Shown here piece by piece: positions 13,627-38,910 of a stretch of 64,000 nucleotides of DNA. Position numbers and translations under genes: made by a program. This DNA is from an uncultured Bacilli bacterium. Its GTDB lineage: Bacteria > Bacillota_I > Bacilli_A > RF39 > UBA660. The number at the start of each line of letters is the position of its first letter. The first letter of the stretch is position 1. Location of the stretch: assembly GCA_947629235.1 (NCBI GenBank), contig CANRCX010000001.1, forward strand, positions 46,374-110,373, given 5' to 3'. Under the pieces are notes generated by a model. It did no database searches. It was not told the origin of the DNA and saw only the letters and a program-made list of their open reading frames with translations.

Positions 13627-16600
13627 GTGAATAAAAATTTAGAAAATATCTTTTCTTATATTGCTGATGTATTAAAAGTTAATGATAGAAGTATTTATGA
13701 TTATAAAAACTATGACGTTTTAATAGAATTAAATGATTTTATAGAGAAATATAAAGATTTTTCAAACGATATAGATGTAGATTCTATAAATATATTAAAA
13801 GATTCAAATATTTTGACATTAAAATATAAAAAAGAAGAAAACTATTTAAAAAAATATCCTATTATAAATGAAAAACTTAAAAATTATATTTCATTAGACA
13901 ATCACAATGAAATTGTAATTAGTGAAGAAAGTTATGCTTTATTAAAAGAAAATAATTTATTAGCTGAATATAACAATTATTTATTAGAATATAATAATGT
14001 AAAAAAGAATAATGATTATATAAATAATTATAATAAAATATATAAAGAATTATACAATTTAAATAAAAGAATAAAAGATAATGAAGAGAAAATTGAAATA
14101 ATATTAGCAACAAATTTATTATATTGGAAAAATGATACAGGAGATATAATAAAAAGACATATTTTAGAATGTAATTTAGACTTAGAAGTGGATTCAATTC
14201 GTGATGTTATAACTCTTAGTATAAGTAATGATAAATTTAAAGGTTTTGTAAGTGATTTTTTAAATGAAAAAAATTATTCAGTTAAATCTAAAAGTGAATT
14301 AGATGATTTAATTAATGAGCAAAATTCATTAATTAAATCTGGAGATATTAGTATTGATAAATTAAATGATAAAATTAGTGAATATATTAACTACATTTCT
14401 TACAATCATTCTATTAAAGATACATATTTTAATGAAAAAGAAATAGAAAATAATATAACATATTTATTTAAAGATAAAACAATATTTTTTAGAAAGAAAA
14501 CATTAAGATTATGGATTGATGATGCACTTGCAATAGCAAATTATTGTAAAGAGAATGAAGTTGATAGCAATATTTTAAAAATGCTTGATATAGATTTTTC
14601 AAATGAAGAAGAAGTAAGAGATGCATTATATGATAGAAGCAATGATATAAATGAAGAAGTATTATTTCCTTTAAGTTCTAATGCAGAACAATATGACATA
14701 GTAGAAAAAATAAATAGAAATAATATTGTTTTAGTTCAAGGCCCACCTGGCACTGGTAAATCTCATACAATAGCAAATTTATTATCACACTATATAGCAC
14801 AAGGTAAAAAAGTAATAGTTACTAGTGAAAAGTCTAAGGCATTAGAAGTATTAAGAGATAAAATTCCAATCTCAATTAGAAGCCTTAGTTTATCTTTATT
14901 GTCAACAAAAGGTATAGATAAAGATTTAGAATTCTCTATAAATAATATTTTAAGTAAACAAAGAGATGAAAAAACTTTAAAAAATAATCTTATAAATATA
15001 AAATTATTAGAAAAAGAGTTAGAAAAAATAAAAGAATGTAAAGGACAAAATCAAAAAGATATAATTGAAATTATGTCTAAAGATGCGATTGATTATAAAG
15101 ATAAATTAATTGGACTTATTGATATTAAATCAGATAGTAAATTTAATTTACAAAATATTGCAAAGTATTTAGAAGATAATAAAAAATATAAATTTATTAA
15201 AGAGAACGATATTGAAAATTATGATTATAAAAATATAGATGAAATGCTTGAAAATCTTGATGATATTAGAGATGAAATAAGAAACAATAATTATGCATTA
15301 TCAACTGAAATTCCAATTAATAACTTACTTCAAGATAATCAAATAGAACTAAGTATTAAAGAAGGGATTAGATATGAAGATTATACTATAAAAAATGAAT
15401 CATTAAAGAGTTCTATTATAGAATCAAAGCTTAATAGTGAAATAATAAATGAACTTACAAATAAAATAAATAATTTAAATAATTTATATGAATTTTTTCC
15501 TAAAAAATGGTTAATTGATAAATTAGATTGGAAAGTATTTTTTGATAATATAGAAAAATTAAAAAAAGAAATTATATCAAAAGAAAAATTAATATATGAT
15601 GTTGAATCAAATAGATTTGATTATAATCTTGATTATGATAGTAACAATTTAGAATATTACCATAATATTATTTTTAATATAACTTCTTTATATAATGATA
15701 AAAAAATTCTTCCTTTAATTAATAAAATAAAATTATCTAATTATTTAAATAAACTTAGTAATTTTAAATTAAACGATGATTATTTAACAAAAAATCTTTC
15801 TTTTGAAGTATTTGAAAATATAGAAAATCAATTAGAATATAAACTTTTCATAAACAATATACAAAATAAGTTAAGTAAAGTATTAGAAAAAGATATTATT
15901 AGTATATTAAATATAAATGAATTTGAATTTGGAAAATATGAAAAAAGAATTATTAATATATTAGATGAAATAATTAATTATAATAAATCTATTAAAGATA
16001 TAGATAATAATTTATCAAAAGTTATAAATACTAAATTATTTAATATATCATATATAGATTCTCTTGAAGAATTTATTTTATCTGTAATTGATGATTTGAA
16101 TTATTATATTACTATAAATTCTAATACATCTAATCAACAAGAGTTTTCAAATGAATTAAGAGATTTTTATAAAGATTATAAATTACAAAATTTAAATGAA
16201 TTAATATTATCTATAGAAAATAAGGATTTAGACGAATATAAAATTAATAAAGAAAAATTATTAAGTGAGATTAATATTATTAATAAATATAATAATATAA
16301 GAAAGAAATATTCTTTAATATTTAGTGATAAACCATTATTTATAAAAAGTTATATATATGATTATGATAATGTAGAAAAATCTTTTGTAAAGGATAATAT
16401 TAAAGAAATATTAAAATATCATTATGTAGAAAAAATTTATCTTTCATTAGAAAAGAAACAGAATGTAAAAAAATTATATGATATAAGAAATGGATTAATT
16501 CAAAAAGAAAAACAAGTCATTGAAGAATTGATTAGTGAAAAAGGATGGTACTATCAAAATAAACAAATGACTCCTTTAATTAGTTCATCACTAAGTAAAT

Positions 16601-20605: not shown

Positions 20606-20917
20606 ATGACAGATAATATGGGTATGTACCAAGGATATAGTGTTGAAGGTAGTGCAGAATTAAAAGTTACTCCAGATAAAATGACTGAAGGCTCTTCTTG
20701 TTGTATGGAAGCACCTATGATGTGCCCACCAGTTTATGAATGTCCACAAGAAAGATGTATTCATAAACAAATTATACATGAAGTACCACATGTACAACCA
20801 ATCAATACTAGAATAATTAATCATCATATATATAGACATACATATACACCTTGTTATACATGTACTGAAGAAAATGAAGTATGCAATGTTAATGTATGTG
20901 GTCCTAAATATATGTAA
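20606..20917 (+). CDS. Cys/His-rich small protein resembling inner spore coat protein CotD family
   Basis: 103 aa. Repeated H-x-x-V/I-x-P-V/I-N/H-like segments (IHKQIIHEVPHVQPINTRIINHHIYRHTY) and many Cys residues. AAAGGAG RBS. Confidence 0.4.
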   Translation: MTDNMGMYQGYSVEGSAELKVTPDKMTEGSSCCMEAPMMCPPVYECPQERCIHKQIIHEVPHVQPINTRIINHHIYRHTYTPCYTCTEENEVCNVNVCGPKYM

Positions 20918-23449: not shown

Positions 23450-23695
23450 ATGTTAAATAATAAAGTTTTAGTAAATTTATATTGTTTATCATTAGGTAAA
23501 ACTTTTGAAGTATATTTGCCTATAAATGAAAAAATAGGAAATATAACAAAAATATTAAATACAACATTATTTGATTCAATTGATTCATCTAGAAATTATA
23601 TGTTTTTGAATTCAGAAACTGGAAATATATATAAAAATAATGAATTGATAAGAGAAACAGATATAAAAAATGGAACAAAAATAATATTAATGTAA
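23450..23695 (+). CDS. esaB: Type VII secretion ubiquitin-like protein YukD/EsaB
   Basis: ~81 aa from ATG 23450 (AGGTGG RBS 6 nt upstream). Beta-grasp-like pattern ending …ETDIKNGTKIILM, as in YukD (…ITNGDRLEIM). Sits directly upstream of essC. Confidence 0.6.
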   Translation: MLNNKVLVNLYCLSLGKTFEVYLPINEKIGNITKILNTTLFDSIDSSRNYMFLNSETGNIYKNNELIRETDIKNGTKIILM

Positions 23696-23715
23696 GAATA
23701 AAGGGTTAGTGTGTT

Positions 23716-26700
23716 ATGAATATATATCTATTTGATGAAAATTCTATTATTACATTTTGTTTACCAAGTAAAAAAATTGGTAATTTTTGGCTTACAGATA
23801 ATGAAAATAAAAATATAGTAAATATAAAAAATGAAGATAATGATTGGATTATTAGTGGAAGCGAAAATACTAAGGTTATATTAGGAAATAATGAACAAAA
23901 AGCTATTTTAAAATCTAAAAATTATTATGCAGTTGAAAAAAATGATAAGAAATATCCTATATTTGTATATGATTCAAATGACAATACATTCAATCCATAT
24001 ATTTTTCCTGAAAATAAAACAATTAAAGTTGGTAGGATAGATGAAAATGATGTAATTGTTAATATTCCATATTTCCAAAAATTACATTTTTGTTTATCTT
24101 TAGAAAAAGGATACTATAAAATTGAAAAAATGCCTGAATCAATTATGTACTTAAATGATGAAATAATAAAAAATGATATAACCTATGCTAAAACTGGTGA
24201 TGTAATAAATGTATATGGAATAAAGTTTGTTCTTGCACACAATTTAATATTTATAAATAATCCCATTGATAGAGTATGTGTAAAAGATATTTTAGAAAAA
24301 ACATCATTTTCTGTTGATGATGAAATAACTAGTGAAGAAATAATTAATGAAGATTTATATAGTGATAAAGATTATTTTTTAAGAAGCCCAAGACTTAGAA
24401 AAATAATTGAAACATTTAAGTTAAATATTGATTCTCCACCAACAAAAGAAAATATGCAACAAATTCCATTAATTATGACTTTAGCACCAATGATTACTAT
24501 GGCAGCAAGTTCAATGGTAACTCTTTCAAATGCAATACAAACTGTAACATCTGGTGAAAAAACATGGAAACAAAATGCACCAACTTTAGTAATTTGTATT
24601 TCAATGTTATTAAGTATGCTTGTATGGCCTTTTGTAACTAGAATATATGAGCAAAAACAAAAAGAAAAAAGGGAGAATGAAAGACAAGAAAAATATAAAT
24701 CATATTTATCAAATAAAAAAGATGAATTATCAGTGGAATATAATATGCAAAAAAGAATATTAGAAGAAAATTTACTTTCTACTGATATTTGTTATGATAT
24801 GATATTAAATAAAAGAAGAACACTTTGGGAAAGAAAAATAGAAGAAAGTGACTTTTTAACAGTTAGACTTGGTAAAGGTGAAATACCATTTGATGCTGAT
24901 ATATCATATAGAAGTGAAGACTTTACAATGGATGATGATAATTTAAAAAAGATGCTTGATGAATTAATAAAGTCATATAAAACATTAACAGATGTTCCAA
25001 TAGGATACTCTTTTTCTTCTAATAAATATACAGCTGTGAGTGGACTTAATCCTAAATATGTATATTTTGTAAATAATTTATTATTACAGATGATGGCATT
25101 TCATAGCTATGATAATTTAAAATTTGTAATATTTACAAATAAAAAAAATCAAAAAAGATGGAAACATTTTAAAGACTCTCCATATTGTTTTTCTGATGAT
25201 AAATATTATAGATTTTTTGCTACTAATACAGAAGAAATGCAAGAAGTATCAAATTATTTGAAACAAATATTCAATAATAGACAAACTTTATCAAATAATG
25301 GTAGTGAAAATGAAAGAATAAATAATTTTTCTAAATTTAATACATATTATTTATTTATTATTGATGATATAGATTTAGCTAGAAAAATAGATATTGTTGA
25401 TAGTGTTTTAGATGAAAAAAAGAATTTAGGTTTTAGCATTTTAGTTATAGAAGAAAGACTATCTAAATTACCAAGTCAAATAACTAAATTTATAAATATT
25501 GGTGATAAAACATCTGTTGTTATTAACAGTGAAAATAATGATCAAATTAGATTCAATGATGAACTTAAAAATTATAATATGGATTTAGTAACAAATACAC
25601 TTATGAATTTACCATTATATATTGATAATAATATAAAACAATTGCCTAATTCAATAACATTCTTGGAGTTATTCAGTGTAGGTCAAATTGATCAATTAAA
25701 TATTCTTAATAGATGGAAAGATAATGATCCTACTAAGTCGTTAAAAGCTGAAATAGGCGTTAATGAAAATAATGATATATTTGTGTTAGATTTACATGAA
25801 AAAGCACATGGTCCACATGGACTTATTGCTGGTATGACTGGTAGTGGTAAATCAGAGTTTATAATTACTTATATACTTTCTATGGCAATTAATTATAGTC
25901 CAGAAGAAGTCGCTTTTGTATTAATTGATTATAAGGGTGGTGGTCTTGCTGGTGCTTTTGTTAATAATGAAACAAAAGAAAAATTACCACATGTAGTAGG
26001 AACAATTACAAATTTAGATAAAGCAGAAATAAATAGAGCTCTTTCAAGTATTCAAAGTGAGCTTAGAAGAAGACAAACTAAATTTAATGAAGTAAGGGAT
26101 AAATTTGGTGAAAGTACAATTGATATATACAAATATCAAAAATTATATAGAGATGGTATGATTAAGGAAGCTATTCCACATTTAATTATAGTTTGTGATG
26201 AATTTGCAGAATTAAAAGATCAACAACCAGATTTTATGGATGATTTAATTAGTACTGCTCGTATAGGTCGTTCACTTGGAGTACACTTGATTTTAGCAAC
26301 ACAAAAGCCAAGTGGAGTAGTAGATTCACAAATATGGTCTAACTCTAAGTTTAAAGTTTGTTTAAAAGTTCAAGATAAATCAGATAGTATGGAAATGATA
26401 AAGTGTGATTTGGCAGCCGAACTTAAAAATGTTGGTAGATTTTATTTACAAGTAGGATATAATGAATATTTTGCAATGGGTCAAGCTGCTTGGGCTGGAG
26501 CACAATATTATCCAAATAAGGAGTATAAAAAACCAGTCGATAAAAATATGTATTTTATAAATAATACAGGTGCTATAAAAAAAGCATTAAATAATAATTT
26601 TGCTAAAAAATTAGTAAAGTCAGAAGGAGAAGAACTTACATCTATTGTAAAATATGTAATAGATATAAGTAAAAATATTGATATAGATGTAAAACAATTA

Positions 26701-28305
26701 TGGTTAGATAGAATACCAAATAAAATATTGATTCAAGATTTATTTAACAAATATAATTATGCTAAAGAAAGATTTAATATAAATCCAATAATAGGTGAAT
26801 ATGATGATCCAGAGAATCAATTACAAGGATTACTAACTCTTCCTATAACAAGCGATGGTAATACTGTTTTATATGGAATTGCTGATAGTGGAAAAGATGA
26901 ATTTTTGTCTACTTTGGTTTATTCTATAATAATGACTTATGATACAAGTGAAGTTAATTTATATTTATTAGACTTTGGTGCTGAAACATTGATTAATTAT
27001 AGTGAAGCACCACAAGTTGGTGATGTAATATTAAATGGTAATGATGAAAAATTAGAAAATTTAGCTAAAATGTTAAATAATGAAATGAATAAAAGAAAAA
27101 AATTATTTATTTCATATAATGGAAATTATAGAGATTATATTAAAAATAGTGGGAAGACACTGCCTAATATCATTGTAATAATAAATTCTATTGAAGTACT
27201 TACTGATACTTATCAAGATTATATAGATAAATTAATACCTGTAGTAAGAGAAGGAAGTAAATACGGAATTAACTTTGTAGTAACAACAAGTAGTCAAAAT
27301 AATATTAAGTTTAAAATAGCACAAGCTTGTAAACAAATTTTAACTCTTCAATTAAACAATGAAAGTGACTATAGAGATTTGTTAGGAAAAACAAATGGGC
27401 TTATACCATCTTCATGTTTAGGAAGAGGACTTGTCAAATTAGATAGAGTATTAGAATTTCAAACAGCTTTTATAACTAATGATGAAAGTTCATTTGTTAA
27501 AATAAAAGAATTAATAAGTTTACTTAATGAAAAAGGTATTAATAAAGCAAGAGAAATACCAGTTATGCCAGATATTATTAAATTAGATAGATTTAAAGAT
27601 AAATATTTAGGTATAGATACAATACCAATTGGATTAACTAAAGAAACATTAGTATCAAGTTTATATGATTATTCTAAAAATGTTGTTAATATTATTTCTT
27701 CTAATGAAATGGAAAGTATGAGAGAATTTATATTAAATTATTTAAAACTTATTGAACAAAATAGTAATAAGTTTAATAGAGTAGTAATAGATGCATGTAA
27801 TTATTTTGAAAACTTTAATTATAATATAAATTTAATAAATGATAAATTTGATTCTGCAATTGATTCATTAAAGAAAATTGATGATAGTTTCCAACAAATA
27901 ATTGAGAAAAACAATATGAATTTAAGAAGTGTTAAAAATCAAATGAATAGTTTAATAATTATAATTGGATTTGATAAATTCTTAACTAGATTAGATGATG
28001 CTCATAAAGAAATGTTTAAAAATATTTTGAAAAATCAAAAAGAAATTTTAAAATTATCATTTGTATTAATTGATATACCATCTGCATTTAAAAAATATGA
28101 ATATGAAGAATGGTATAAAGATAGCATTACTGGAAACGATGGATTATGGATTGGAAATAATATTTCACAACAATTTGTTATCAAAACAACAATTCAACCA
28201 AATAGTATTAATAATATTGGAAATGGTTATGCAGTTTCAGTTAAAAATGGTATGCCAATTGTTATAAAATTAATAAATGAAATAAAAGTCAAAAAAAGAG
28301 AATAA
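23716..28305 (+). CDS. essC: Type VII secretion system ATPase EssC/YukB (FtsK/SpoIIIE family)
   Basis: 1529 aa. N-terminal FHA-like region. Two TM helices (~aa 250-300). First ATPase domain with HGPHGLIAGMTGSGKSE Walker A and LIIVCDEFAEL Walker B. Two further degenerate P-loop domains (GIADSGKDEF…). Confidence 0.85.
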   Translation: MNIYLFDENSIITFCLPSKKIGNFWLTDNENKNIVNIKNEDNDWIISGSENTKVILGNNEQKAILKSKNYYAVEKNDKKYPIFVYDSNDNTFNPYIFPENKTIKVGRIDENDVIVNIPYFQKLHFCLSLEKGYYKIEKMPESIMYLNDEIIKNDITYAKTGDVINVYGIKFVLAHNLIFINNPIDRVCVKDILEKTSFSVDDEITSEEIINEDLYSDKDYFLRSPRLRKIIETFKLNIDSPPTKENMQQIPLIMTLAPMITMAASSMVTLSNAIQTVTSGEKTWKQNAPTLVICISMLLSMLVWPFVTRIYEQKQKEKRENERQEKYKSYLSNKKDELSVEYNMQKRILEENLLSTDICYDMILNKRRTLWERKIEESDFLTVRLGKGEIPFDADISYRSEDFTMDDDNLKKMLDELIKSYKTLTDVPIGYSFSSNKYTAVSGLNPKYVYFVNNLLLQMMAFHSYDNLKFVIFTNKKNQKRWKHFKDSPYCFSDDKYYRFFATNTEEMQEVSNYLKQIFNNRQTLSNNGSENERINNFSKFNTYYLFIIDDIDLARKIDIVDSVLDEKKNLGFSILVIEERLSKLPSQITKFINIGDKTSVVINSENNDQIRFNDELKNYNMDLVTNTLMNLPLYIDNNIKQLPNSITFLELFSVGQIDQLNILNRWKDNDPTKSLKAEIGVNENNDIFVLDLHEKAHGPHGLIAGMTGSGKSEFIITYILSMAINYSPEEVAFVLIDYKGGGLAGAFVNNETKEKLPHVVGTITNLDKAEINRALSSIQSELRRRQTKFNEVRDKFGESTIDIYKYQKLYRDGMIKEAIPHLIIVCDEFAELKDQQPDFMDDLISTARIGRSLGVHLILATQKPSGVVDSQIWSNSKFKVCLKVQDKSDSMEMIKCDLAAELKNVGRFYLQVGYNEYFAMGQAAWAGAQYYPNKEYKKPVDKNMYFINNTGAIKKALNNNFAKKLVKSEGEELTSIVKYVIDISKNIDIDVKQLWLDRIPNKILIQDLFNKYNYAKERFNINPIIGEYDDPENQLQGLLTLPITSDGNTVLYGIADSGKDEFLSTLVYSIIMTYDTSEVNLYLLDFGAETLINYSEAPQVGDVILNGNDEKLENLAKMLNNEMNKRKKLFISYNGNYRDYIKNSGKTLPNIIVIINSIEVLTDTYQDYIDKLIPVVREGSKYGINFVVTTSSQNNIKFKIAQACKQILTLQLNNESDYRDLLGKTNGLIPSSCLGRGLVKLDRVLEFQTAFITNDESSFVKIKELISLLNEKGINKAREIPVMPDIIKLDRFKDKYLGIDTIPIGLTKETLVSSLYDYSKNVVNIISSNEMESMREFILNYLKLIEQNSNKFNRVVIDACNYFENFNYNINLINDKFDSAIDSLKKIDDSFQQIIEKNNMNLRSVKNQMNSLIIIIGFDKFLTRLDDAHKEMFKNILKNQKEILKLSFVLIDIPSAFKKYEYEEWYKDSITGNDGLWIGNNISQQFVIKTTIQPNSINNIGNGYAVSVKNGMPIVIKLINEIKVKKRE

Positions 28306-28425
28306 ATTTATTTAAAAAACTACAATTTTTTACAAATAAGTTTTATTCTTTTTGCTGATTAAATTAAAATTACTTTACAATAAAAACCAAATATTGTAAA
28401 CTTATTATAGGAGGTAAAATGATAT

Positions 28426-29043
28426 ATGAATCATAAAGTAAATAATGTACAAAATTTATTTGATGATGCTCGAACTTTGTATATGTCTGTAGTTACAGGT
28501 GGGGCTCCTTATTCTGCTGATACAATAATTACTAATTTATCAACTGGAATTGATATATTAAAAAATTGTTGGTTTGGTAAAGATGCTGGAGTTCAAATTC
28601 AAAATTTAGTAGTTGTTCATAATGCAATGGTTGCAGTAAGAAATTCTTTAGGATTTTTAGCTGAAACTACTACTAAAATTGCATCTAATTATAGAGAAAT
28701 ACAAAATTCTAATGGTGCAGGTCTTGAAACATTAGTTCCAGTTACAAATGAAAATAGAACAATTCTTGGTAGCTATAGTGATATGAGAGATACTATTAAC
28801 ATTTCTCCAGAAGCAAATAATGGAAATCAAAAAGTTGTAGCTGCAAATGGTGAAATTGATAATTTCATTAGTAATGTAAGAAAATATTTTGACCAAATTA
28901 TGAATAATTGGACAGCTGGACCTGGAAGAGAAGAATTTCAAAATGAATTTAATACTTTTGTAAGTAGTGCAAATAAATACAAATCAGTATTAAATGAAGC
29001 ATCACAAAGTATAGCAACTGCTATAAAAAATTATGGAATGTAA
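28426..29043 (+). CDS. WXG-motif helical protein; candidate T7SS substrate or toxin chaperone (WXG100/Lap-like)
   Basis: 205 aa, helical. W-x-G motif in KNCWFGKDAG near residue 50. Located immediately 3' of essC and 5' of the giant toxin. Strong AGGAGG RBS. Confidence 0.4.
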   Translation: MNHKVNNVQNLFDDARTLYMSVVTGGAPYSADTIITNLSTGIDILKNCWFGKDAGVQIQNLVVVHNAMVAVRNSLGFLAETTTKIASNYREIQNSNGAGLETLVPVTNENRTILGSYSDMRDTINISPEANNGNQKVVAANGEIDNFISNVRKYFDQIMNNWTAGPGREEFQNEFNTFVSSANKYKSVLNEASQSIATAIKNYGM

Positions 29044-29048
29044 TAATA

Positions 29049-29072
29049 AGAAGCAATTTTGCTTCTTATTTC
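29049..29072 (+). terminator. Weak terminator-like hairpin
   Basis: AAGAAGCA-attt-TGCTTCTT followed by ATTTCC (short U-tract). Confidence 0.35.
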
Positions 29073-29124
29073 CTAAGTTGAATAGTATATATTCTATTTA
29101 GGAAATAAGAAGGAGAGTGATATT

Positions 29125-29568
29125 ATGGCATCTTCATCATATTGGGCAGGAAGACTAAATGAAGCAAAAGCATTAAAGGCAAAAGCAGAAGAAAGATTAA
29201 AAAAATTAGAAGAACTAAAAGGAAAAATAGATCCAATTCCAGAAGCATTAGAATCAGTAATTGATACTTTTCAAAAAATAGGATTTAGTTTATCTGCAGT
29301 TTGTCCAGCTGGTTATCCAATAGATAATGGAAGTTATAATAAAAATGCAGATGATTTGCAGACTGCAGAAAGTGATTATCTTTCATTAATAAGTGAATGT
29401 GCCAATCAAATAGAGGCTGAGAGACTCGATATTAGAGATTTTGATAATTCGATTACATACTATCAAAATCAATATGATATAGCTGTTGAAGCAGAAAGAC
29501 AGGCATATTTAGCATCATTACAAAATGCGAATAATAGTAAAAAGAATAATACTAGTACAAAAAAATGA
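29125..29568 (+). CDS. Small helical hypothetical protein (possible toxin-associated accessory)
   Basis: 147 aa, predicted coiled-coil/helical. AGGAG RBS. Sits between the WXG protein and the toxin gene. Confidence 0.45.
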   Translation: MASSSYWAGRLNEAKALKAKAEERLKKLEELKGKIDPIPEALESVIDTFQKIGFSLSAVCPAGYPIDNGSYNKNADDLQTAESDYLSLISECANQIEAERLDIRDFDNSITYYQNQYDIAVEAERQAYLASLQNANNSKKNNTSTKK

Positions 29569-29589: not shown

Positions 29590-32500
29590 ATGAGATGCAT
29601 AAATTGTGGAAAAGAAATAGATGTTAGTTATGGAATGGTAATGTGTCCATATTGTGGAAGAATATTGGATGATAAAATAGATAAAACAGATTATGAAAAT
29701 GCATATAATGAATTTTCAAACGAAAGAGAAGAATTAAAAAAAAACAATAAAGATAATGATAAGCCAATAACAAATGAATTTAATAAAATGGATGATAATA
29801 CCAAACTAAAAAAAGCTATTGTAGGTGGACTAGCAACTACTGCTTTTGCAGCAAGTGCTGGAAGTCTTTATGCTGCAAATAAAAATATTAACAAAAGTAA
29901 TAAAGAAAACAAAAATAAAACTTTTCCAGATGATAATATTAACAATGTTGTTATAAATGATAACGATGAAATAGAAGAAAATGCAGACAATATATTAGAT
30001 GATGATTTATTTGATTCTAACGATGTGACTAATGAAGAAGACAATATAATAGTTGATAATAATGAAAATTTAGATACAAATAATAGTAGCCAAGCAGCTA
30101 AAGATAATGGTATAGATTATAACCCAAATGCAACTCCTTCTAAACCAAAAAAAAGTACTTCAAAAAAAGTAACATCCAAATCAAATAATAACAAAAATTC
30201 AACTACTACTTCAAAAGATGAAAATAGTAATGATAATAATTTAAATAATGAAGATCAAATAATAACAGATGAAAATATATCAGAAAACGAACAAGATTCA
30301 TCATCAGAAGAAACAGAAGATGATATATTTAAAAATCCAAATGAAGATGATGATACATCAAATAACGAACCTGATATAGATTCTGATAAATCAGATGAGA
30401 ATATTACTGATAATGAAGAATCTAATATCGATACATCAGAAGAAGGATTTGAAAATTTATCTCCATATCCAGCAACTACAATATCAAATAATACTAATTA
30501 TACAAATGATTCGTCATATAATAGTTCATCATTTTCGGTAGATTATTTTCATCTAGAAAATGCTATATCTTTAATAAATAATGCAAATGATTCTTTTAGT
30601 AATATAGTATCATTAACTTCTGATATAAATACTGACGGATTAAATTTACAAACATCTGTAGCCTCAGCTAATGCTACTATAGAAAAATGTTTTGGAAATG
30701 CATCTGGAAGTAAAGTTGGAGTTTCTGCTGGTACGGCATCTCAATTAAACAAATTAAGATCAGATTTACAAAAAATGGATCCAGATTATGATTTTAATTA
30801 TGATTATTATAAATATATGAATTTAGGTTATTTATCAGAGCAAGAAGGATGGAATTCTGATGAATTTAAAAAACAAGAAAGTAGTTTAGAATCAAGTTTA
30901 AGAAGTGAAATAGGAGAAAGAAAAAAAGAGTATGAAGGAAATACTAAAAAGATAGAATTTTTAGACCAAGTTATTGAATCAATAGATATTCAAAATGAGG
31001 CATTCGAAAATTATTATAAAAATTTAGTTGATATTGAAACATTTACTGCTGTAAATCAGTACGTATCTGATAGAATGAATGATTCTACTATACCTGCTAA
31101 TTCTACATATGAAAAATATATTGATGAAAAAGTACAAGAATTAAAAGATTTGAATGCAGAAAATGAAAAAAAATATAATGAATTAGAGAAGGCTAAGCAA
31201 AAAAATAAAAATGATATAAATACTAAAAATGGAACAGAAAATACTTCTTCTGAAGAAGAACTTACTGTTTCAAAATACTCTGATGGAACATATGCATATT
31301 TAGATGAACAAAGCTTACAATTATTACAATATTATACTAATTATAAGTATTTAAATGCATGTAATGAGAGTAATTCAATTTCATCAATCCAAAGTCAAAT
31401 ATCATCATTAGAAACTAAATTAAAAATGAATCAAGATAGTTTGAATTCTGGAATTGTTTATGAGAATGGTTATCCAACTGTTATGTCTAATGATGAAAAA
31501 ACTGAATTAGAAAATATAAATAAAAAATTAAGTCAAGAAAAAGATGATTTAAATAATAGAATTAATCAAATAAATGAATCTTTTGAAAGTATTCTTAAAG
31601 ATTATTATGATGCTAATGCTGAATCAATTTATAGAATACCAGAAATAAATAGAAAACCTGAACAAAAAGATTTCTTACTTTCAAGAGATAGTTATGTTGC
31701 AACTTTACAACAAAAAGATTTGAGAAATGAAATTCAAGAATATCAACAATATATAGAAGATATACAAGAAGAAATAGATAGTTTATCAGAAAAAGCAGCA
31801 GGAGCATATGCAACAAATGTATCTTATAATAGTTCAGAATATTCTGGAATAAATTATTATGCAAATTATAAAGCTGCTTTAAAATATGGATATGGTTTAG
31901 AGTATTTAGATGAAAAAGAACAAGCTAGATATAAATTTTTATTAGAAACTGTTTCTTCACTTGAAGAAAAAAGTGCCATTGCTTTAGATGCAAATAATAA
32001 ATTAGAAGAATTAAAACAACAATTAATAATGCAAAGAAGTGATTATAGTAAGTATTCTAATTTTAATAATATAAAAGTAGAAAATGGATTTTTTGGTGGT
32101 TTAGTTTTTAGAGATGCTACCACTAATGAAAAATTAGATTTGTCTAAAGAAGAACAAGCTGTAATTTTAGCAATGAAAGGCAGTAACTCTACAAATGGTA
32201 CAGTAAATGAATATATAAATTATTTAAAAAACGGAAGTGAAAATTTATCTTATGATGCTTTAGGTGTTATAGCATATAATATGAATAAATCAAAAGAATT
32301 TGAGGGATATGATTCTAACTTTGCTTCTAGTTTTGATTATCTTTATGATCAAGGTGCAAGAATACTTGGAAAACAAATGGCAGATGAATTTACTACTAGA
32401 TTAGATAATTGTCCTGATATATTTGATTGGGTTTTAGTTGCAGATGAGGCATTAGAAGATGGATTGACTGGTTTCTTCCGTGGATTTAAAAATATATTTT

Positions 32501-35500
32501 GTGCGGATGGAAGAGCAGATGCTAGAGATTATAAACCAATGTTTATAACAGATTATATTAATAATTCTGATCAATATTGTGGACTTTATAAAACAATTCT
32601 TACAAGTGAATATGAAATTACAAATAGTATAGGAAATATGTTACCATCTATGTTAGTTACTTTAATACCTGTTGTTGGTCCTGCTGTTGGTTTAATTTCT
32701 TTAGGTGTTTCTGCTGCAGGTAATGCTAGAGAACAAGGATTACAACAAGGCATGAGTCAAGCTTCAGCGTGGATGTATGGTGTTCTATCTGGTGCTTCTG
32801 AAGCTTTACTTGAGAAGTTCCTCGGAGGTATTCCTGGTCTTTCAGATATGTCAAATGTTGTTGGAGTTCATGGACTTGCAAGAATATTTAAGGCTGGATG
32901 TAGTGAAGCTAGAGAAGAAATGTTACAAGAATTCTTGGATCCAATATTTAAATTTGTATCAACAGGTGGAGAAATAAGAGAAAATATAAGTGTAGAAAAT
33001 ATTTTAAAAGCTGGAATTTATGCTTTTATAACTGCAGGAATTTTAAATGGTGGAAATGTAGCATTTGAAGGAGTTTCATATAGATTAACAGGAGATTATT
33101 TAGCTCTTGGTACTTTAGCATCTTTAAATACAAATAGTGATTTATCTATAAAAGAAAATATTAAAAATTTCTTAAGAGATTTAAATGAATTCCAAAATAG
33201 GGATATTAAGTCTCTTGAAGAAAGCTTAATGGAAAATGAAGAAGTAAAAGCTGCTTATGAAGCTGCTAAGGCTGGTAAAGGTGATCTTGCATTTAATGAT
33301 TTTGTATCTAGAATTGTAGTTGAACAAGTTGTTAGTGAAAATAATGCATTATCACAAGAGTTATCTGAAGAAATTAAACAAAAAACAAAAGATTTACAAG
33401 ATTTAAGAAATAAAAATATTGATGGTAGATATAATGAAGATATAAGTAAATTAGAAAGTGAAATAAATGATTTAACAGAGCAAAGAAAATCTATTTATGA
33501 TAATGATATGACAATTCAAGATTCAATAGAAAGAGCAAAAGAAAAAGCTGTTCAAAATATCGATGACTTAATAAGAAGAAATAACAAGCATTTAGCAAAA
33601 GATTTATCAGAAGTATCAGCTGAAAATCTAATAGAATATTTAAATAATACAGAAATAACAGCAGAAAAAATAAAAGTGTTATTTGATAATATTAGTGAAG
33701 AAAAAATAAATAAGATATTAGAAGAAAAACCAGAATTAAAAGCATTATTAGAAGAAAATAGTACTGAAAGTACTGATGCAAGTGTAATAAATCATGAGTT
33801 GATAGATAAATTTAAAGCAACTAAAAATTATGCAGAAAAAATAGAATTAATAGAACAAATGAGTTCAGAAGAAATAGTACAATTATTAAAAGAAGACTCA
33901 CAAGCAAAATTAGTACTAGGAAAAATAAAAGATAATGCGAAATTAGCAGATGTAATAAACAAATCAAATTCAGAAGTACTAAATTCAATTTTTGGTCCAC
34001 CATTAAATGAATATTCTGATACAACAACACAATTAAAGGAAACATTAAAAGCAAAATTAAAAGGCCAAGCATTATTTGAAGGAACTATAAATAAATTAAG
34101 AGAATTAGGAATAGAAATAGAAGAAAGTGAAGAACAAATAGAAACTTCAGATGATACAACGGCTGAACCAACTTCTGAAATAGTAGATCATCATGATGCA
34201 ACAACTGAAGAAAGTGAGTCAAAAACTCTACCAAAAAGTGATAATAGTACTGAAAGTACTGATGCAAGCGTAATAAGTCATGAATTGATAGATAAATTTA
34301 AAGCAACTAAAAATTATGCAGAAAAAATAGAATTAATAGAACAAATGAGTTCAGAAGAAATAGTACAATTATTAAAAGAAGACTCACAAGCAAAATTAGT
34401 ACTAGGAAAAATAAAAGATAATGCGAAATTAGCAGATGTAATAAACAAATCAAATTCAGAAGTACTAAATTCAATTTTTGGTACACAATTAAATGAATAT
34501 TCTGATACAACAACACAATTAAAGGAAACATTAAAAGAAAAATTAAAAGGTCAAACATTATTTGAAGGAACTATAAATAAATTAAGAGAATTAGGAATAG
34601 AGATTGAAGAAAGTGAAAAAACAAGTCATGAATTGATAGATAAATTTAAAGCAACTAAAAATTATGCAGAAAAAATAGAATTAATAGAACAAATGAGTTC
34701 AGAAGAAATAGTACAATTATTAAAAGAAGACTCACAAGCAAAATTAGTACTAGGAAAAATAAAAGATAATGCAAAATTAGCAGATGTAATAAACAAATCA
34801 AATTCAGAAGTATTAAATTCAATTTTTGCTACACAATTAAATGAACATTCTGATGCAACAACACAATTAAAGGAAACATTAAAAGCAAAATTAAAAGGTC
34901 AAACATTATTTGAAGGAACTATAAATAAATTAAGAGAATTAGGAATAGAAATAGAAGAAAGTGAAAAACAAGTAGAAATTGCACATGATATAACAACAGA
35001 ACAAACATCTGAAATAGTAGATCATCAAGATACAACAACTGATAAAGCAGCAGAAGAAACAGATCATCAAGATACAACAACTGATAAAGCAGCAGAAGAA
35101 ACAGATCATCAAGATGCAACAATTAAACCAACACCAGAAGAAACAGATCATCAAGATGCAACAATTGAACCAACACCAGATGAAGCAGGTCAACAAGATG
35201 CAACAATTGAACCAACACCAGATGAAGCAGAACAACATGATACAATAATTGAACCAACAATAGAAGATGCAGGTCAACATGATGCATTAACAGATGCAAC
35301 AGCAAAAGTAGATGAGGCACATGATGTAGTAACAGATGCAGCAGAACAAGTAAAAGAAGCAGAGAATTTAGTGGATTCTTCATCTGAAAATAATCAAGCA
35401 TCTGTTCCACCAGTTCCACCAATAGTAGATATTGACTCAAATGCAAATCAATCACCTATAAAGATGGAAATATCTGAATTTTTAGCAAAATATAAAGGCT

Positions 35501-37206
35501 TTAAAAATATATATGAATTTAAACAAAAATTTTCATCATTGTTAAGTCAATGGGAAAGTTCTTTAACGGCTAGAGAAATAAGTTTAATTGAGAATTATAC
35601 AGGTAATAATGAAATGGAATTTGGAAATTATGCAACTGTAAATAGCATATTGAGAGGAATCTTTTTCAATTCACAAGATGGTAAAATTCACATTAAAAGA
35701 ATTGGTGGAGATGAAGATTCATATACTTTTTCAGAATTTGCTTATATGGTAAGGAGTAAATACTCTTCTGCAGCAAATCTTAGTGATGCAGATGCAATAA
35801 AGTTTTTTGTGAGAGGCCAAATACAAGCTATAAATGATTTATCTAATGCAATAAGTAAATTTGAACTTCCAGAAGATATATTATTGGAAAGACGCATTGG
35901 TGGTAGTTCATTAGTTAAACTCTTTAATATTGATATAAATAATGATTCTGTTGAGGATGTTGTAAGAAAAATAAATGATGGTGGTTATTTTAGAGATAAT
36001 GGTTTTATGAGTACTTCAGCCGGTAAATCTCCAGGATATGGAAATGTTGTACTAAAGCTTGGATGTAAAGCTGGTATGTCTGCAGTTGATATCACAGGAA
36101 ATAGTAAATATTCAGTTGGAGAAAATGAAGTCCTTGTAAACATTGGTACAACATTTAGAGCGGTAAATGCAGAAAGAGTAAATGGAAGATTAGTTATTTA
36201 TTTAGAAAGTATTCCAGCTAATAATATTCAAGTTGATAGTATGGATAGCTTAAAAACATTTATTTCTGATAATATAAATGCTTCACCAAATTCAATAGCT
36301 AAAACAATTAATAATTATTTTGAACAACAAATGAAAAATAATGCATCTAATTCATACTTAAAACAAAGCCTTTATTATGATTTATTAGAAATATCTGGTA
36401 TGCCTGGAATTGATCAAACAACTATGTCAGAAATATTATCTTCAGTAATTTCAAATAATAAAGAAATGAGATCAATAATATATGAAATGGCACAAGAAGA
36501 AATAAAGCAAAGTTTTAAAGATACATTAGATATACAAAATGATGCTGATATAAAAACATTAACAGATTTTATATTAGGAGAATCTTTTGTAGAAAATGGT
36601 GTTGGTAATCAAAATTGGGATGGATTTTTTAACTTTATATATGATAAAGTTAAAGAATCAGTTGCTAAATCTGCAAAAAATAAAGAAGCAATATTATGGA
36701 GTAAGCTTCCAACAATAGCATTAAATCAAATGTATTCTACAATTGAAAATACTACACTTGGAGATACTATGTACTTTTTAGATTTAGTTTATTCAAATTG
36801 GAATAGTCAATTTAGCACTTTACCACCATTAGAAGAATTCTGGGGTAAAATGTCTAAATTATATGCAGAAGCATGTTCTAATTTAAAAGATGAAAATGGA
36901 AATCCAATAACAAAATTAAAATATATTTATCCAGGTCAAGATGCTATAGGTGAGTTATTTAAAAAAGAAGAATTACCTACATTGTTAGAAAAAGGAGTAA
37001 TAAAAACATTGGAAGTTGTTAAAGCTAATGTAGATGAAACAAATCCAGATTTACCTAAACTAACAAATGAAAAAACAATAGAAATAGATTTAACAGAATT
37101 AAGCAATTTCTATAGAAAGAATCTTAATAAAGGTGTTTCAAAAGATATTTTAATTGAAAAAGTTTATTCAAAATTCATTGAATTATTACATAAGGGAGGT
37201 TTATAA
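29590..37206 (+). CDS. Giant modular protein with C-terminal ADP-ribosyltransferase (iota/VIP2/C2-type, R-S-ExE) toxin domain
   Basis: 2538 aa. N-terminal CxxC…CxxC zinc ribbon (CINCGK…CPYCGR) then a TM helix (KLKKAIVGGLATTAFAASAGSLYAA). A D/N/S-rich linker, then a long helical region. A hydrophobic Gly-rich segment (aa ~1000-1150). Three ~116-aa tandem repeats, then TDHQD acidic repeats and a PPVPP motif. In the C-terminus the ART motifs read LLERRIGG (Arg, nt 35888-35893), FMSTSAG (STS, nt 36004-36024) and GENEVLV (ExE, nt 36118-36138). Confidence 0.8.
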   Translation: MRCINCGKEIDVSYGMVMCPYCGRILDDKIDKTDYENAYNEFSNEREELKKNNKDNDKPITNEFNKMDDNTKLKKAIVGGLATTAFAASAGSLYAANKNINKSNKENKNKTFPDDNINNVVINDNDEIEENADNILDDDLFDSNDVTNEEDNIIVDNNENLDTNNSSQAAKDNGIDYNPNATPSKPKKSTSKKVTSKSNNNKNSTTTSKDENSNDNNLNNEDQIITDENISENEQDSSSEETEDDIFKNPNEDDDTSNNEPDIDSDKSDENITDNEESNIDTSEEGFENLSPYPATTISNNTNYTNDSSYNSSSFSVDYFHLENAISLINNANDSFSNIVSLTSDINTDGLNLQTSVASANATIEKCFGNASGSKVGVSAGTASQLNKLRSDLQKMDPDYDFNYDYYKYMNLGYLSEQEGWNSDEFKKQESSLESSLRSEIGERKKEYEGNTKKIEFLDQVIESIDIQNEAFENYYKNLVDIETFTAVNQYVSDRMNDSTIPANSTYEKYIDEKVQELKDLNAENEKKYNELEKAKQKNKNDINTKNGTENTSSEEELTVSKYSDGTYAYLDEQSLQLLQYYTNYKYLNACNESNSISSIQSQISSLETKLKMNQDSLNSGIVYENGYPTVMSNDEKTELENINKKLSQEKDDLNNRINQINESFESILKDYYDANAESIYRIPEINRKPEQKDFLLSRDSYVATLQQKDLRNEIQEYQQYIEDIQEEIDSLSEKAAGAYATNVSYNSSEYSGINYYANYKAALKYGYGLEYLDEKEQARYKFLLETVSSLEEKSAIALDANNKLEELKQQLIMQRSDYSKYSNFNNIKVENGFFGGLVFRDATTNEKLDLSKEEQAVILAMKGSNSTNGTVNEYINYLKNGSENLSYDALGVIAYNMNKSKEFEGYDSNFASSFDYLYDQGARILGKQMADEFTTRLDNCPDIFDWVLVADEALEDGLTGFFRGFKNIFCADGRADARDYKPMFITDYINNSDQYCGLYKTILTSEYEITNSIGNMLPSMLVTLIPVVGPAVGLISLGVSAAGNAREQGLQQGMSQASAWMYGVLSGASEALLEKFLGGIPGLSDMSNVVGVHGLARIFKAGCSEAREEMLQEFLDPIFKFVSTGGEIRENISVENILKAGIYAFITAGILNGGNVAFEGVSYRLTGDYLALGTLASLNTNSDLSIKENIKNFLRDLNEFQNRDIKSLEESLMENEEVKAAYEAAKAGKGDLAFNDFVSRIVVEQVVSENNALSQELSEEIKQKTKDLQDLRNKNIDGRYNEDISKLESEINDLTEQRKSIYDNDMTIQDSIERAKEKAVQNIDDLIRRNNKHLAKDLSEVSAENLIEYLNNTEITAEKIKVLFDNISEEKINKILEEKPELKALLEENSTESTDASVINHELIDKFKATKNYAEKIELIEQMSSEEIVQLLKEDSQAKLVLGKIKDNAKLADVINKSNSEVLNSIFGPPLNEYSDTTTQLKETLKAKLKGQALFEGTINKLRELGIEIEESEEQIETSDDTTAEPTSEIVDHHDATTEESESKTLPKSDNSTESTDASVISHELIDKFKATKNYAEKIELIEQMSSEEIVQLLKEDSQAKLVLGKIKDNAKLADVINKSNSEVLNSIFGTQLNEYSDTTTQLKETLKEKLKGQTLFEGTINKLRELGIEIEESEKTSHELIDKFKATKNYAEKIELIEQMSSEEIVQLLKEDSQAKLVLGKIKDNAKLADVINKSNSEVLNSIFATQLNEHSDATTQLKETLKAKLKGQTLFEGTINKLRELGIEIEESEKQVEIAHDITTEQTSEIVDHQDTTTDKAAEETDHQDTTTDKAAEETDHQDATIKPTPEETDHQDATIEPTPDEAGQQDATIEPTPDEAEQHDTIIEPTIEDAGQHDALTDATAKVDEAHDVVTDAAEQVKEAENLVDSSSENNQASVPPVPPIVDIDSNANQSPIKMEISEFLAKYKGFKNIYEFKQKFSSLLSQWESSLTAREISLIENYTGNNEMEFGNYATVNSILRGIFFNSQDGKIHIKRIGGDEDSYTFSEFAYMVRSKYSSAANLSDADAIKFFVRGQIQAINDLSNAISKFELPEDILLERRIGGSSLVKLFNIDINNDSVEDVVRKINDGGYFRDNGFMSTSAGKSPGYGNVVLKLGCKAGMSAVDITGNSKYSVGENEVLVNIGTTFRAVNAERVNGRLVIYLESIPANNIQVDSMDSLKTFISDNINASPNSIAKTINNYFEQQMKNNASNSYLKQSLYYDLLEISGMPGIDQTTMSEILSSVISNNKEMRSIIYEMAQEEIKQSFKDTLDIQNDADIKTLTDFILGESFVENGVGNQNWDGFFNFIYDKVKESVAKSAKNKEAILWSKLPTIALNQMYSTIENTTLGDTMYFLDLVYSNWNSQFSTLPPLEEFWGKMSKLYAEACSNLKDENGNPITKLKYIYPGQDAIGELFKKEELPTLLEKGVIKTLEVVKANVDETNPDLPKLTNEKTIEIDLTELSNFYRKNLNKGVSKDILIEKVYSKFIELLHKGGL
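33760..34966 (+). repeat. Three near-identical in-frame tandem repeats (~348-nt core; ~116 aa) inside the toxin gene
   Basis: Units begin ~33760, ~34246 and ~34621 and each ends in GAAGAAAGTGAA. Their protein sequence (SHELIDKFKATKNYAEKIELIEQMSSEEIVQLLKEDSQAKLVLGKIKDNAKLADVINKSNSEVLNSIF…KGQTLFEGTINKLRELGIEIEESE) is nearly identical at nt level. Confidence 0.9.
35020..35290 (+). repeat. Short degenerate acidic tandem repeats (DHQDTTTDKAAEET / DHQDATIEPTPDEA)
   Basis: A 42-nt unit gatcatcaagatacaacaactgataaagcagcagaagaaaca is repeated exactly twice, followed by 3-4 diverged copies. Confidence 0.8.
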
Positions 37207-37207
37207 T

Positions 37208-37711
37208 ATGAATGCATTAACACAAATTAACACAGATTTATATGATAAGAGATTAGATATAAAATTCAATCCAGATTTATTAAATGAACTTGATTATGAT
37301 AGTAGGCATAAAGTGGAAAAAACTTTATTATCTTATTGTAAGCAAGGAATTGAAACATCATTTAAATATCTACAATATTTTAATACAATTAGTGAAGAAG
37401 ATATGATAACAGAAGAAGATATTTCAAAACTTTCATTACCATATCAGGTGGAAATTTATAGATTCTTATTTTTAAAAAGTAAAAATTTGGATATATTAAA
37501 TAAATTAATTAATTTATCTATGAATTCTTATAACGCTTTTTACCAGTTGTTAATGATATATAATTCTGATATAATAACTGATGAAGAAAAGGAAAAAATA
37601 AAATTAGCAATAGATAAGTCATTTGAAAATAATAAAACAGATATAAATTATAAATTTTTGATTGATAATTATATAGATGGTTATGATAATGATGATATAA
37701 AATTGTTATAA
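37208..37711 (+). CDS. Small helical protein immediately 3' of ART toxin; candidate immunity protein
   Basis: ~167 aa from ATG 37208 (GGGAGG RBS 9 nt upstream). The ORF-track start at 37154 overlaps the toxin 3' end and lacks an RBS. No recognisable family. Position is typical of a cognate immunity gene. Confidence 0.5.
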   Translation: MNALTQINTDLYDKRLDIKFNPDLLNELDYDSRHKVEKTLLSYCKQGIETSFKYLQYFNTISEEDMITEEDISKLSLPYQVEIYRFLFLKSKNLDILNKLINLSMNSYNAFYQLLMIYNSDIITDEEKEKIKLAIDKSFENNKTDINYKFLIDNYIDGYDNDDIKLL

Positions 37712-37730: not shown

Positions 37731-37946
37731 ATGGAAAATAAGTATAGTAAATTTAAAAGTGATGAAGAAAATGAATTTACTACTGGTAATAAACGTGGTA
37801 GTTTAACACAAGAACAAATAAGAGAAGAATTGGAACAAAAATTACAGTCACAATTAAAAATGATTGATGACTGGGTTGCATCATCTTCAAGTCAAGAAGC
37901 AGATGAAGAACAAGAGCAAGAAAGAGAAGAAGGACTGCATAGATAA
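37731..37946 (+). CDS. Small acidic hypothetical protein
   Basis: 71 aa. Strong AGGAGG RBS. C-terminus is highly acidic (EADEEQEQEREE). The stop abuts the start of the ADP-ribosylglycohydrolase gene. Confidence 0.35.
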   Translation: MENKYSKFKSDEENEFTTGNKRGSLTQEQIREELEQKLQSQLKMIDDWVASSSSQEADEEQEQEREEGLHR

Positions 37947-37947
37947 T

Positions 37948-38910
37948 ATGAATAATATTATAAAAAATGGTTTATATGGTTTTGCTATTGGTGATGCAAT
38001 GGGTGTACCAATTGAATTCACACCTAGAGTTAGCGATGAATCAAAAAAATTAAAAGAAATGGTAGGATATGGATCACATCATGTTCCAGAGGGAACTTGG
38101 TCAGATGATACTTCAATGACAATTGCTACTATGGATTCTATACAAGAATGTAAAGGAATTGATTATTATGATATAATGGATAAATTTACAAATTGGTATA
38201 ATAATGCATTGTATACTGCAACTGATAGAGTCTTTGATATTGGAAATACTACACGTTTGGCAATAGATAAATATAGTAGATTATCAATGAATCCACTTCA
38301 ATGTGGTGGAAAAAATGAAAGAGACAATGGTAATGGTTCACTAATGAGAATGCTTCCTATTGCAATATATTTATTTTATAATAATTTAAGTGAACAAGAA
38401 GAAATGGAAATAGTAAAAAACATTTCTTCTCTAACTCATGCCCATGATATTAGTATATTAGGATGTAAAATATATGTAGATTTTATTAAAGAAATTCTTT
38501 CTGGAAAATCAAAAGAAGATGCATATAATAGTTTATCCAAAAATAATTATAATGTTTATTTTGATAATAATACAATTGAAAAATATGATTCTATATTAAA
38601 TGGTAATTTGAAAAATAAATCAATAGATGAAATAAGATCATCTGGTTATGTAGTTAATACACTAGAAGCATGTTTGTGGTGTACGTTAAATACAAAAAAT
38701 TATGAAGAGAGTATAATAGAAGCAATTAATTTAGGAAAAGATACTGATACAGTAGGTGCAATTACAGGATCTTTAACTGGATTAATATATGGATATGATA
38801 ATATACCACAAAGATGGCTATCAAAATTAAGAAAAAAAGAATATTTAGATGAACTAATTGATAAGTTTAATAATTATTTAAATAATGAAAATGTTAAAGT
38901 TAGAGGATAA
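37948..38910 (+). CDS. ADP-ribosylglycohydrolase (DraG/ARH family)
   Basis: ~320 aa from ATG 37948. N-terminal GLYGFAIGDAMGVPIEF matches the ARH family metal-binding region. C-terminal …KDTDTVGAITGSLTGLIYG is the conserved second Asp cluster. The ORF-track start at 37864 is an in-frame 5' extension. Confidence 0.8.
   Translation: MNNIIKNGLYGFAIGDAMGVPIEFTPRVSDESKKLKEMVGYGSHHVPEGTWSDDTSMTIATMDSIQECKGIDYYDIMDKFTNWYNNALYTATDRVFDIGNTTRLAIDKYSRLSMNPLQCGGKNERDNGNGSLMRMLPIAIYLFYNNLSEQEEMEIVKNISSLTHAHDISILGCKIYVDFIKEILSGKSKEDAYNSLSKNNYNVYFDNNTIEKYDSILNGNLKNKSIDEIRSSGYVVNTLEACLWCTLNTKNYEESIIEAINLGKDTDTVGAITGSLTGLIYGYDNIPQRWLSKLRKKEYLDELIDKFNNYLNNENVKVRG

Follow-up and report, generated by a model that had tools for sequence, protein, structure and literature searches.

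Can a secretion system of type VII (T7SS) consist of only a membrane ATPase, a ubiquitin-like protein (Ubl) and a WXG100 protein? This question is raised by a locus of an uncultured Bacilli bacterium, which we analysed within a stretch of 64,000 nucleotides (contig CANRCX010000001.1 of assembly GCA_947629235.1, positions 46,374 to 110,373), referred to below as the window. A first-pass annotation had recognised only homologues of YukD/EsaB and EssC and had suggested that the remaining core components are either encoded elsewhere or replaced, in a stripped-down apparatus, by a protein of 467 or of 205 amino acids (aa). We show here that the genes for Ubl, EssC and the 205-aa WXG protein (WXG205) form a co-linear triad, which is conserved, is under purifying selection and comprises the only genes that always travel together. 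The module is real, conserved and well delimited, and by its gene content it appears to be a variant of T7SS closest to T7SSb. We think it probable, with considerable reserve, that it represents a self-sufficient T7SS of uncultured gut Bacilli which is reduced to the three shared components, carries a cargo module and has T7SSb as its nearest known relative.

The largest of the three proteins is the FtsK/SpoIIIE ATPase of the EssC/YukB type (23716..28305, + strand, 1529 aa). It passes the NCBIfam equivalog model TIGR03928 with 988 bits (cutoff 778), and its best match in the PDB is B. subtilis YukB (chain 9qks_G, 419 bits). An FHA region (residues ~1-215) is followed by two transmembrane (TM) helices (~250-311), a DUF and the ATPase domains D1-D3, so that the description of this protein as a three-ATPase EssC holds. 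D1 has a canonical Walker A motif (GMTGSGKS) at residue 706 and a Walker B motif at residue 824; the Walker A motif of D2 (GIADSGKD, at 1054) is degenerate. The FHA signal is weak (19.2 bits, below the cutoff of 20.7), and conservation over nine EssC orthologues is highest in D1 (0.83) and lowest in FHA2 (0.33). As judged from these motifs and domains, nothing is missing from EssC as an ATPase of the T7SSb type: the catalytic site of D1 is intact, and two TM helices are predicted.

Ubl (23450..23695, + strand, 81 aa) is encoded immediately before EssC, from an ATG at 23450 that has a strong Shine-Dalgarno sequence, AGGTGGA, 4 nt upstream. A YukD/EsaB homologue had been described as clearly present here; however, since neither the Pfam nor the NCBIfam scan gives a YukD match, the protein is not clearly recognisable by its sequence. 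What stands is the ubiquitin fold and the link to the YukD family. The AlphaFold2 model, computed from an alignment of 34 homologues, is a beta-grasp (pLDDT 89.4), whose best Foldseek matches in the PDB are ubiquitin, NEDD8, a bacterial Ubl and the Ubl domain of EccD5 from the ESX-5 complex. The family profile retrieved 570 cluster representatives from 1.84 billion proteins, and 15 of 129 sampled finds match Pfam YukD (PF08817; best E 1.1e-6). Because of the beta-grasp model and this transitive profile link, with which synteny agrees, we assign the predicted 81-aa protein to the YukD/EsaB (TsxB) ubiquitin-fold family as a divergent member.

The third component, WXG205 (28426..29043, + strand), does carry a WXG motif at twice the usual length, as had been noted. 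In a full-length scan it meets the Pfam WXG100 model (PF06013) in its C-terminal half only (29.6 bits, cutoff 27.3); the N-terminal half has no Pfam match, and its sequence similarity to WXG100 proteins is weak. WXG205 has more than 277 homologues, and among the matches listed nearly all are 201-210 aa long and most exactly 205 aa; invariant residues include W49-x-G51 and W162/G165. The protein is soluble and all-helical. Its AlphaFold2 model (pLDDT 94.5, pTM 0.89) shows helix-turn-helix hairpins at residues 8-95 and 130-203, which are connected by an ordered crossover linker of ~35 residues and have a conserved W..G at each turn, W49-x-G51 falling at the predicted turn of the N-terminal half. 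When the two halves are aligned with hhalign the WXG turns are in register, but the E value of 0.16 is non-significant, so that the sequence does not prove an internal duplication. Hidden Markov models of both halves nevertheless share their top match, a 106-aa WXG100 protein of a distant relative. A sequence search of the PDB with WXG205 returned chance matches only, and the window has no gene for a WXG100 protein of ~100 aa, as the first-pass annotation had stated for a protein of EsxA size. With two predicted WXG hairpins, WXG205 is best read as the EsxA/TsxA equivalent in the form of a single-chain pseudo-dimer. As it would then be the WXG100 component itself, it is not a replacement for the membrane parts EssB and EsaA.

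The conservation of the triad was assessed in 78 related loci, 7 from a genome scan and 71 from a metagenome scan, whose neighbouring open reading frames (ORFs) were clustered into families; 23 of the loci contain a full-length EssC. The locus counts per family were 82 for WXG205, 38 for EssC and 30 for Ubl, and no other family is close to these figures or universal. Ubl lies directly upstream of EssC in 23/23 loci with full-length EssC, and WXG205 directly downstream of it in these 23, save in one sub-group where it stands four genes upstream, behind another toxin cassette. The flanks vary on both sides: NUDIX-VanZ, rpoZ, gap or rpoC genes are found upstream, and giant toxins, DUF4176 genes with mid-size toxins, or nothing downstream. 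The order in locus L038 is rpoZ-Ubl-EssC-WXG-RNase J, with housekeeping genes abutting the triad directly. The ratio of non-synonymous to synonymous substitution rates (dN/dS) is 0.17-0.5 for the three genes. Short same-strand gaps separate the genes of the module; because the numbers of promoters and terminators found between 22.4 and 39.5 kb of this AT-rich DNA were no higher than in shuffled sequence, the operon structure is deduced from these gaps alone.

The nearest genomes in a species-representative collection are gut metagenome-assembled genomes of uncultured 'Bacilli bacterium' and 'Clostridium sp. CAG:524', and their EssC proteins are 53-81% identical to that of the window. Exact-sequence searches with the EssC, PepF and histidine kinase of the window matched no recorded entry, and Ubl was matched only on short contigs. 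One relative is a complete chromosome of 1.53 Mb (CP091739.1) in a heavily frameshifted assembly; in its locus L007 (571921-596559) the EssC, WXG, toxin and housekeeping genes are all split into many short ORFs, most likely through indel errors of long-read assembly and not as real pseudogenes. Using a broader Ubl profile we also reached five deeper relatives (L086-L090), in three of which EssC was compared and found to be 38-43% identical. All five have the arrangement housekeeping genes, EssC, Ubl, an array of soluble ~100-aa proteins, housekeeping genes, and the called genes for EssC and Ubl overlap by 11 bases. The order EssC-Ubl is thus the reverse of that in the clade of the window, and 5-7 separate ~100-aa proteins take the place of the fused 205-aa protein. 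Several of the array proteins contain W-x-G in the three deeper loci examined. No match to YukC, EsaA or EssA was found in the five loci, where EssC is the cluster's only membrane protein.

The same components are missing from the window. Pfam and NCBIfam scans of window ORFs gave no match to EssB/YukC, EsaA/YueB or EssA, the large ORFs outside these scans being read by eye as housekeeping genes, and to this extent the reported lack of EssB and EsaA was borne out. YukC, EsaA and EssA are likewise absent from the precomputed Pfam annotation of the neighbours of orthologous loci. No large polytopic protein of the EsaA type was found, the only large membrane-associated protein nearby being a 2538-aa toxin that is not conserved across loci, and the module contains no conserved small TM protein of the EssA/YueC type. 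Nor did the scanned window ORFs match any of the accessory families (kinase, phosphatase or FHA) known from other T7SS subtypes; the Ser/Thr kinase TsxD, PPM TsxF, FHA TsxJ, TsgL, EspG-like TsxG and Ig-rich TsxI families are found neither in the neighbours within the window nor in the related loci having precomputed Pfam annotation. Upstream of Ubl lie a 467-aa DUF2628 membrane protein with a glutamine/asparagine-rich N terminus, a NUDIX protein and a VanZ protein, just as the first-pass annotation had stated. We do not regard them as T7SS components: none of the related loci encodes a homologue of the 467-aa protein, and NUDIX and VanZ travel with the module in one sub-clade only. The giant toxin was also considered as an analogue of EsaA and was ruled out, because several loci (L004, L012, L037 and L038) have no giant protein. 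Of the stripped-down apparatus with substitutes, the reduced apparatus is strongly supported by comparison with the 23 loci and the five deeper relatives, and substitution by the 467-aa or the 205-aa protein is not supported.

The most serious alternative is a split T7SSb, in which essA, essB and esaA, or functional analogues of them, make up an operon of their own beyond the window. The window covers 64 kb of a genome of ~1.5 Mb, a size judged from a relative, and EssC scores as a T7SSb equivalog that retains FHA domains. In addition, orphan modules of WXG205 and toxin genes are found far from EssC in related contigs (L011, L022, L023, L067, L069 and L072), so that dispersal is possible. However, none of the 23 loci with full-length EssC, which represent at least four chromosomal contexts, has essA, essB or esaA within 10 kb, the five deeper relatives similarly have none of these genes nearby, and each of the ten described subtypes has its accessory genes grouped with that of the ATPase (PMC11217815). 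We consider a split locus unlikely, although it deserves to be kept in mind. As separate observations on the orphan modules, to which L079 also belongs, some WXG205 copies adjoin pcrA or accompany an 842-aa toxin with no EssC within 10 kb, and an identical WXG205 protein (P0066) occurs in two contexts, L011 and L012, one of them with no EssC nearby; L011 contains downstream a 586-aa FtsK/DUF87-like protein, possibly a C-terminal fragment of EssC.

It might also be argued that the locus is the decaying remnant of a T7SSb, left over after genome reduction and no longer secreting, and the small, very AT-rich genome of the lineage, with a related complete chromosome of 1.53 Mb, would suit such a history. 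This is nevertheless very improbable, as the three ORFs are intact in dozens of species with EssC identities of 53-81%, the Walker motifs of the highly conserved D1 are preserved, dN/dS below 0.5 argues against decay, and intact giant toxins and immunity genes are still attached to the loci. Finally, the 205-aa protein could on its own be taken for a four-helix bundle of the ferritin/Dps or Mn-catalase type, unrelated to secretion, a reading which we dropped as hardly credible because no pairs of E/H metal ligands are conserved in the family.

We therefore return to the self-sufficient three-component T7SS. According to this proposal, six EssC protomers would form both the motor and, through 12 TM helices, the membrane channel. 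Ubl would be clasped between the FHA and DUF of EssC, as YukD is in YukB, and would stabilize the assembly in the absence of a YukC/EssB crown. The fused WXG100 pseudo-dimer would act as an obligate co-secreted substrate or activator in the role of the EsxA homodimer, and a giant ADP-ribosyltransferase (ART) toxin would be exported with the help of an adjacent 147-aa helical partner, while an ADP-ribosylhydrolase encoded downstream would protect the producer. EssA, EssB and EsaA would be absent since the lineage has no need of them.

Several points weigh against this proposal. The missing components are required for secretion in S. aureus and B. subtilis, and the FHA region, which is kept in the EssC of the window, is where the EssB pseudokinase binds in T7SSb. 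Since WXG205 and toxin modules occur away from EssC, dispersal of T7 genes is possible, and genes for EssA, EssB and EsaA, or for accessory proteins not homologous to them, may lie elsewhere in the genome. Export by the module is, moreover, a prediction from its genes. With regard to the FHA region, it is the least conserved part of EssC, and the FHA and DUF domains of B. subtilis YukB grip YukD between them (Oka et al.; PMC12637312). By analogy, this grip could explain why the region is kept without EssB. In the model of the same study YukB constitutes the central channel with a crown of YukC around it, and an EssC-Ubl core lacking the crown is therefore mechanistically conceivable. A wider generalization, that throughout a whole clade of uncultured, low-GC gut Bacilli, probably with small genomes, EssC is the sole T7SS membrane component and the triad exports toxins of several thousand residues, is put forward more tentatively, and we would not bet on it at even odds.

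The genes downstream of WXG205 had been described as substrate-like, and this description fits a 147-aa helical protein and a PF03496 toxin, which are followed by an ADP-ribosylglycohydrolase. The first of these (29125..29568, + strand) is a soluble coiled-coil protein with no match in Pfam or NCBIfam and no TM segment. Its position and its small helical counterparts make it a candidate Lap-like toxin-targeting partner. In related loci the slot after the WXG gene is occupied by divergent small helical proteins of 110-200 aa (families f4, f14, f17 and f36), which have a G-x-x-[FY]-D-x-G patch in common, and the counterpart in L001 gives a weak BLAST match to it.

The polymorphic toxin (29590..37206, + strand, 2538 aa) consists of a Zn-ribbon, an N-terminal hydrophobic stretch, a helical region, a hydrophobic module, repeats, the ART domain and an extra C-terminal domain. 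When scanned alone, the segment at ~residues 2078-2196 (nt 35821-36177) matches PF03496 with 58.7 bits, and the toxin is 29% identical to the ART toxin of L012, which itself bears PF03496. LXG polymorphic toxins are defined by an N-terminal LXG domain (PF04740). Neither the 2538-aa protein nor its residues 301-567 matched this family, and the N terminus is a Zn-ribbon instead. This ribbon (window 29590-29900) gives a weak Pfam match, and inspection by eye shows a short hydrophobic stretch after it; a hydropathy scan called no TM segment in the N-terminal region and found one strong TM segment in the toxin, at residues 1017-1044. Residues ~850-1185 (window 32130-33150) have 33-36% identity to regions in giant proteins of L001, L002, L003 and L013; this region has no Pfam family, contains glycine-rich amphipathic segments and may be a membrane-insertion or translocation module. 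Further downstream (window 34275-35308) a 348-bp repeat unit is present in 2.0 copies with a 97% match, with a third copy at the protein level, and is followed, just upstream of the ART domain, by ~6.7 copies of a 42-bp repeat encoding acidic 'ETDHQDATIEPTPE' units. Possibly the repeats serve as a spacer or stalk, which recombination would expand. The protein does not end with the ART domain: ~330 aa more follow (window 36199-37203) with no Pfam match, of which residues 2234-2515 show 30% identity to a part of L003's giant protein, and this region may be a second toxin domain or a targeting domain.

Right after the toxin lies a 185-aa ORF (37154..37711, probably starting at ATG 37208, + strand), which has no family match and no homologue in related loci; its position suggests a possible immunity or accessory function. 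Between this ORF and the next gene there is a putative gene for an acidic 71-aa protein with no family match (window 37731-37946), which overlaps a TTG-started reading of that gene. The gene in question (37864..38910, likely from ATG 37948, + strand) encodes an ADP-ribosylglycohydrolase (PF03747, 250 bits) and is the candidate immunity gene. Against NF041672, the model for the ADP-ribosylarginine hydrolase Tri1, the hydrolase scores 213.8 bits, below the cutoff of 490. The same pairing is found in L012, where a hydrolase homologue of 61% identity follows the ART toxin. By their predicted domains, the ART toxin and the hydrolase form a Tre1-Tri1-like pair of toxin and immunity protein that is joined to a T7SS.

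The remainder of the window, which has a G+C content of ~24% and carries nearly all genes on the + strand, is housekeeping at both ends: dnaK, dnaJ, rplJ/L, rpoB/C and ffh upstream, and trmL, RNase J, iscS, thiI, leuS, murT/gatD, dnaG and sigA downstream. At 13627-18456, in the stretch of lowest G+C (18% at 14-16 kb), lies the gene for a 1609-aa protein that combines a superfamily 1 helicase (AAA_11, AAA_12, AAA_30) with a C-terminal MTES_1575/DUF559 restriction-endonuclease-like domain; the protein has no counterpart in related loci, and its gene may have been inserted as a defence or mobile element. Next to ffh is the gene for a cysteine-rich protein of 103 aa (20606-20917), for which no family match was obtained; its family occurs in 6 loci overall, with 73-94% identity in both genome loci having it.

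If the triad is indeed self-sufficient, it would be a natural minimal T7SS, and EssA, EssB and EsaA would be lineage-specific additions outside the translocation mechanism. Opinion is still divided on which T7SS proteins make up the channel and which serve as scaffolds or cell-wall adaptations, and no hexameric T7SSb structure is available yet (PMC12637312). Self-sufficiency would support the idea that EssC by itself provides the pore as well as the motor, and EssC, Ubl and the WXG100 protein would make a compact target for reconstitution and cryo-EM. The single-chain double WXG100 protein would, in addition, be a convenient means of studying how EssC is engaged by the EsxA dimer. The interest of the module depends on the accessory components being absent elsewhere in the genome. 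The locus also links abundant gut bacteria to very large, putatively ADP-ribosylating and antibacterial toxins.

Among the known systems, the cargo most resembles Tre1-Tri1 of the Serratia type VI secretion system (T6SS), in which an ART toxin is likewise paired with an ADP-ribosylarginine hydrolase as immunity protein. The linkage here is to a T7SS instead of a T6SS, the downstream hydrolase matches the Tri1 model but stays below its cutoff, and the toxin is a multidomain protein of 2538 aa whose ART domain is not C-terminal. A single-chain bundle is also seen in the PE/PPE-like ESX-1 substrate EspB; unlike WXG205, however, EspB belongs to the actinobacterial T7SSa, is not a core EsxA-type protein, has a long C-terminal extension and oligomerizes into rings.

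The secretion module itself shares with T7SSb the build of EssC (FHA, two TM helices, a DUF, three ATPase domains), a separate ubiquitin-fold protein resembling YukD/EsaB and a WXG100 core substrate, as well as polymorphic toxins with small helical partners and immunity genes, and DUF4176 genes in sister loci. It differs in that the window and the orthologous EssC neighbourhoods lack EssB/YukC, EsaA/YueB and EssA/YueC, in a WXG100 protein whose two hairpins are fused in a chain of 205 aa, where T7SSb has a homodimer of ~100-aa subunits, and in a Ubl too divergent for Pfam YukD. A survey of RefSeq genomes has defined the subtypes T7SSc-j beside a and b (Garrett, Higginson & Palmer, 2024; PMC11217815). 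According to this survey, TsxA (the WXG100 protein), TsxB (the Ubl, which T7SSd alone lacks) and TsxC (the ATPase) are common to T7SSa-j, and every subtype adds specific components encoded next to tsxC, so that none consists of A, B and C only; even T7SSg, the simplest, still has a beta-propeller protein and an FHA-less ATPase. The module is similar to T7SSf and T7SSg, which are likewise simple systems of Bacillota with TsxA, TsxB and TsxC at their core. The two WXG100 paralogues of T7SSg (A1 and A2) are comparable to the two fused hairpins described here, and T7SSf has an FHA-bearing ATPase. On the other hand, the ATPase of T7SSg has no FHA, and its DUF5050 beta-propeller TsgL is not present here; nor are the PPM phosphatase, TsfJ and the AAA+ protein TsfV of T7SSf. 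Our literature search found no paper on an A-B-C-only T7SS, on a fused core WXG100 protein or on a T7SS in these lineages, and it is unlikely that the RefSeq survey held uncultured lineages of this sort. If our proposal is correct, the 2024 catalogue of subtypes (a-j) would be extended to uncultured gut lineages which that survey probably did not sample.

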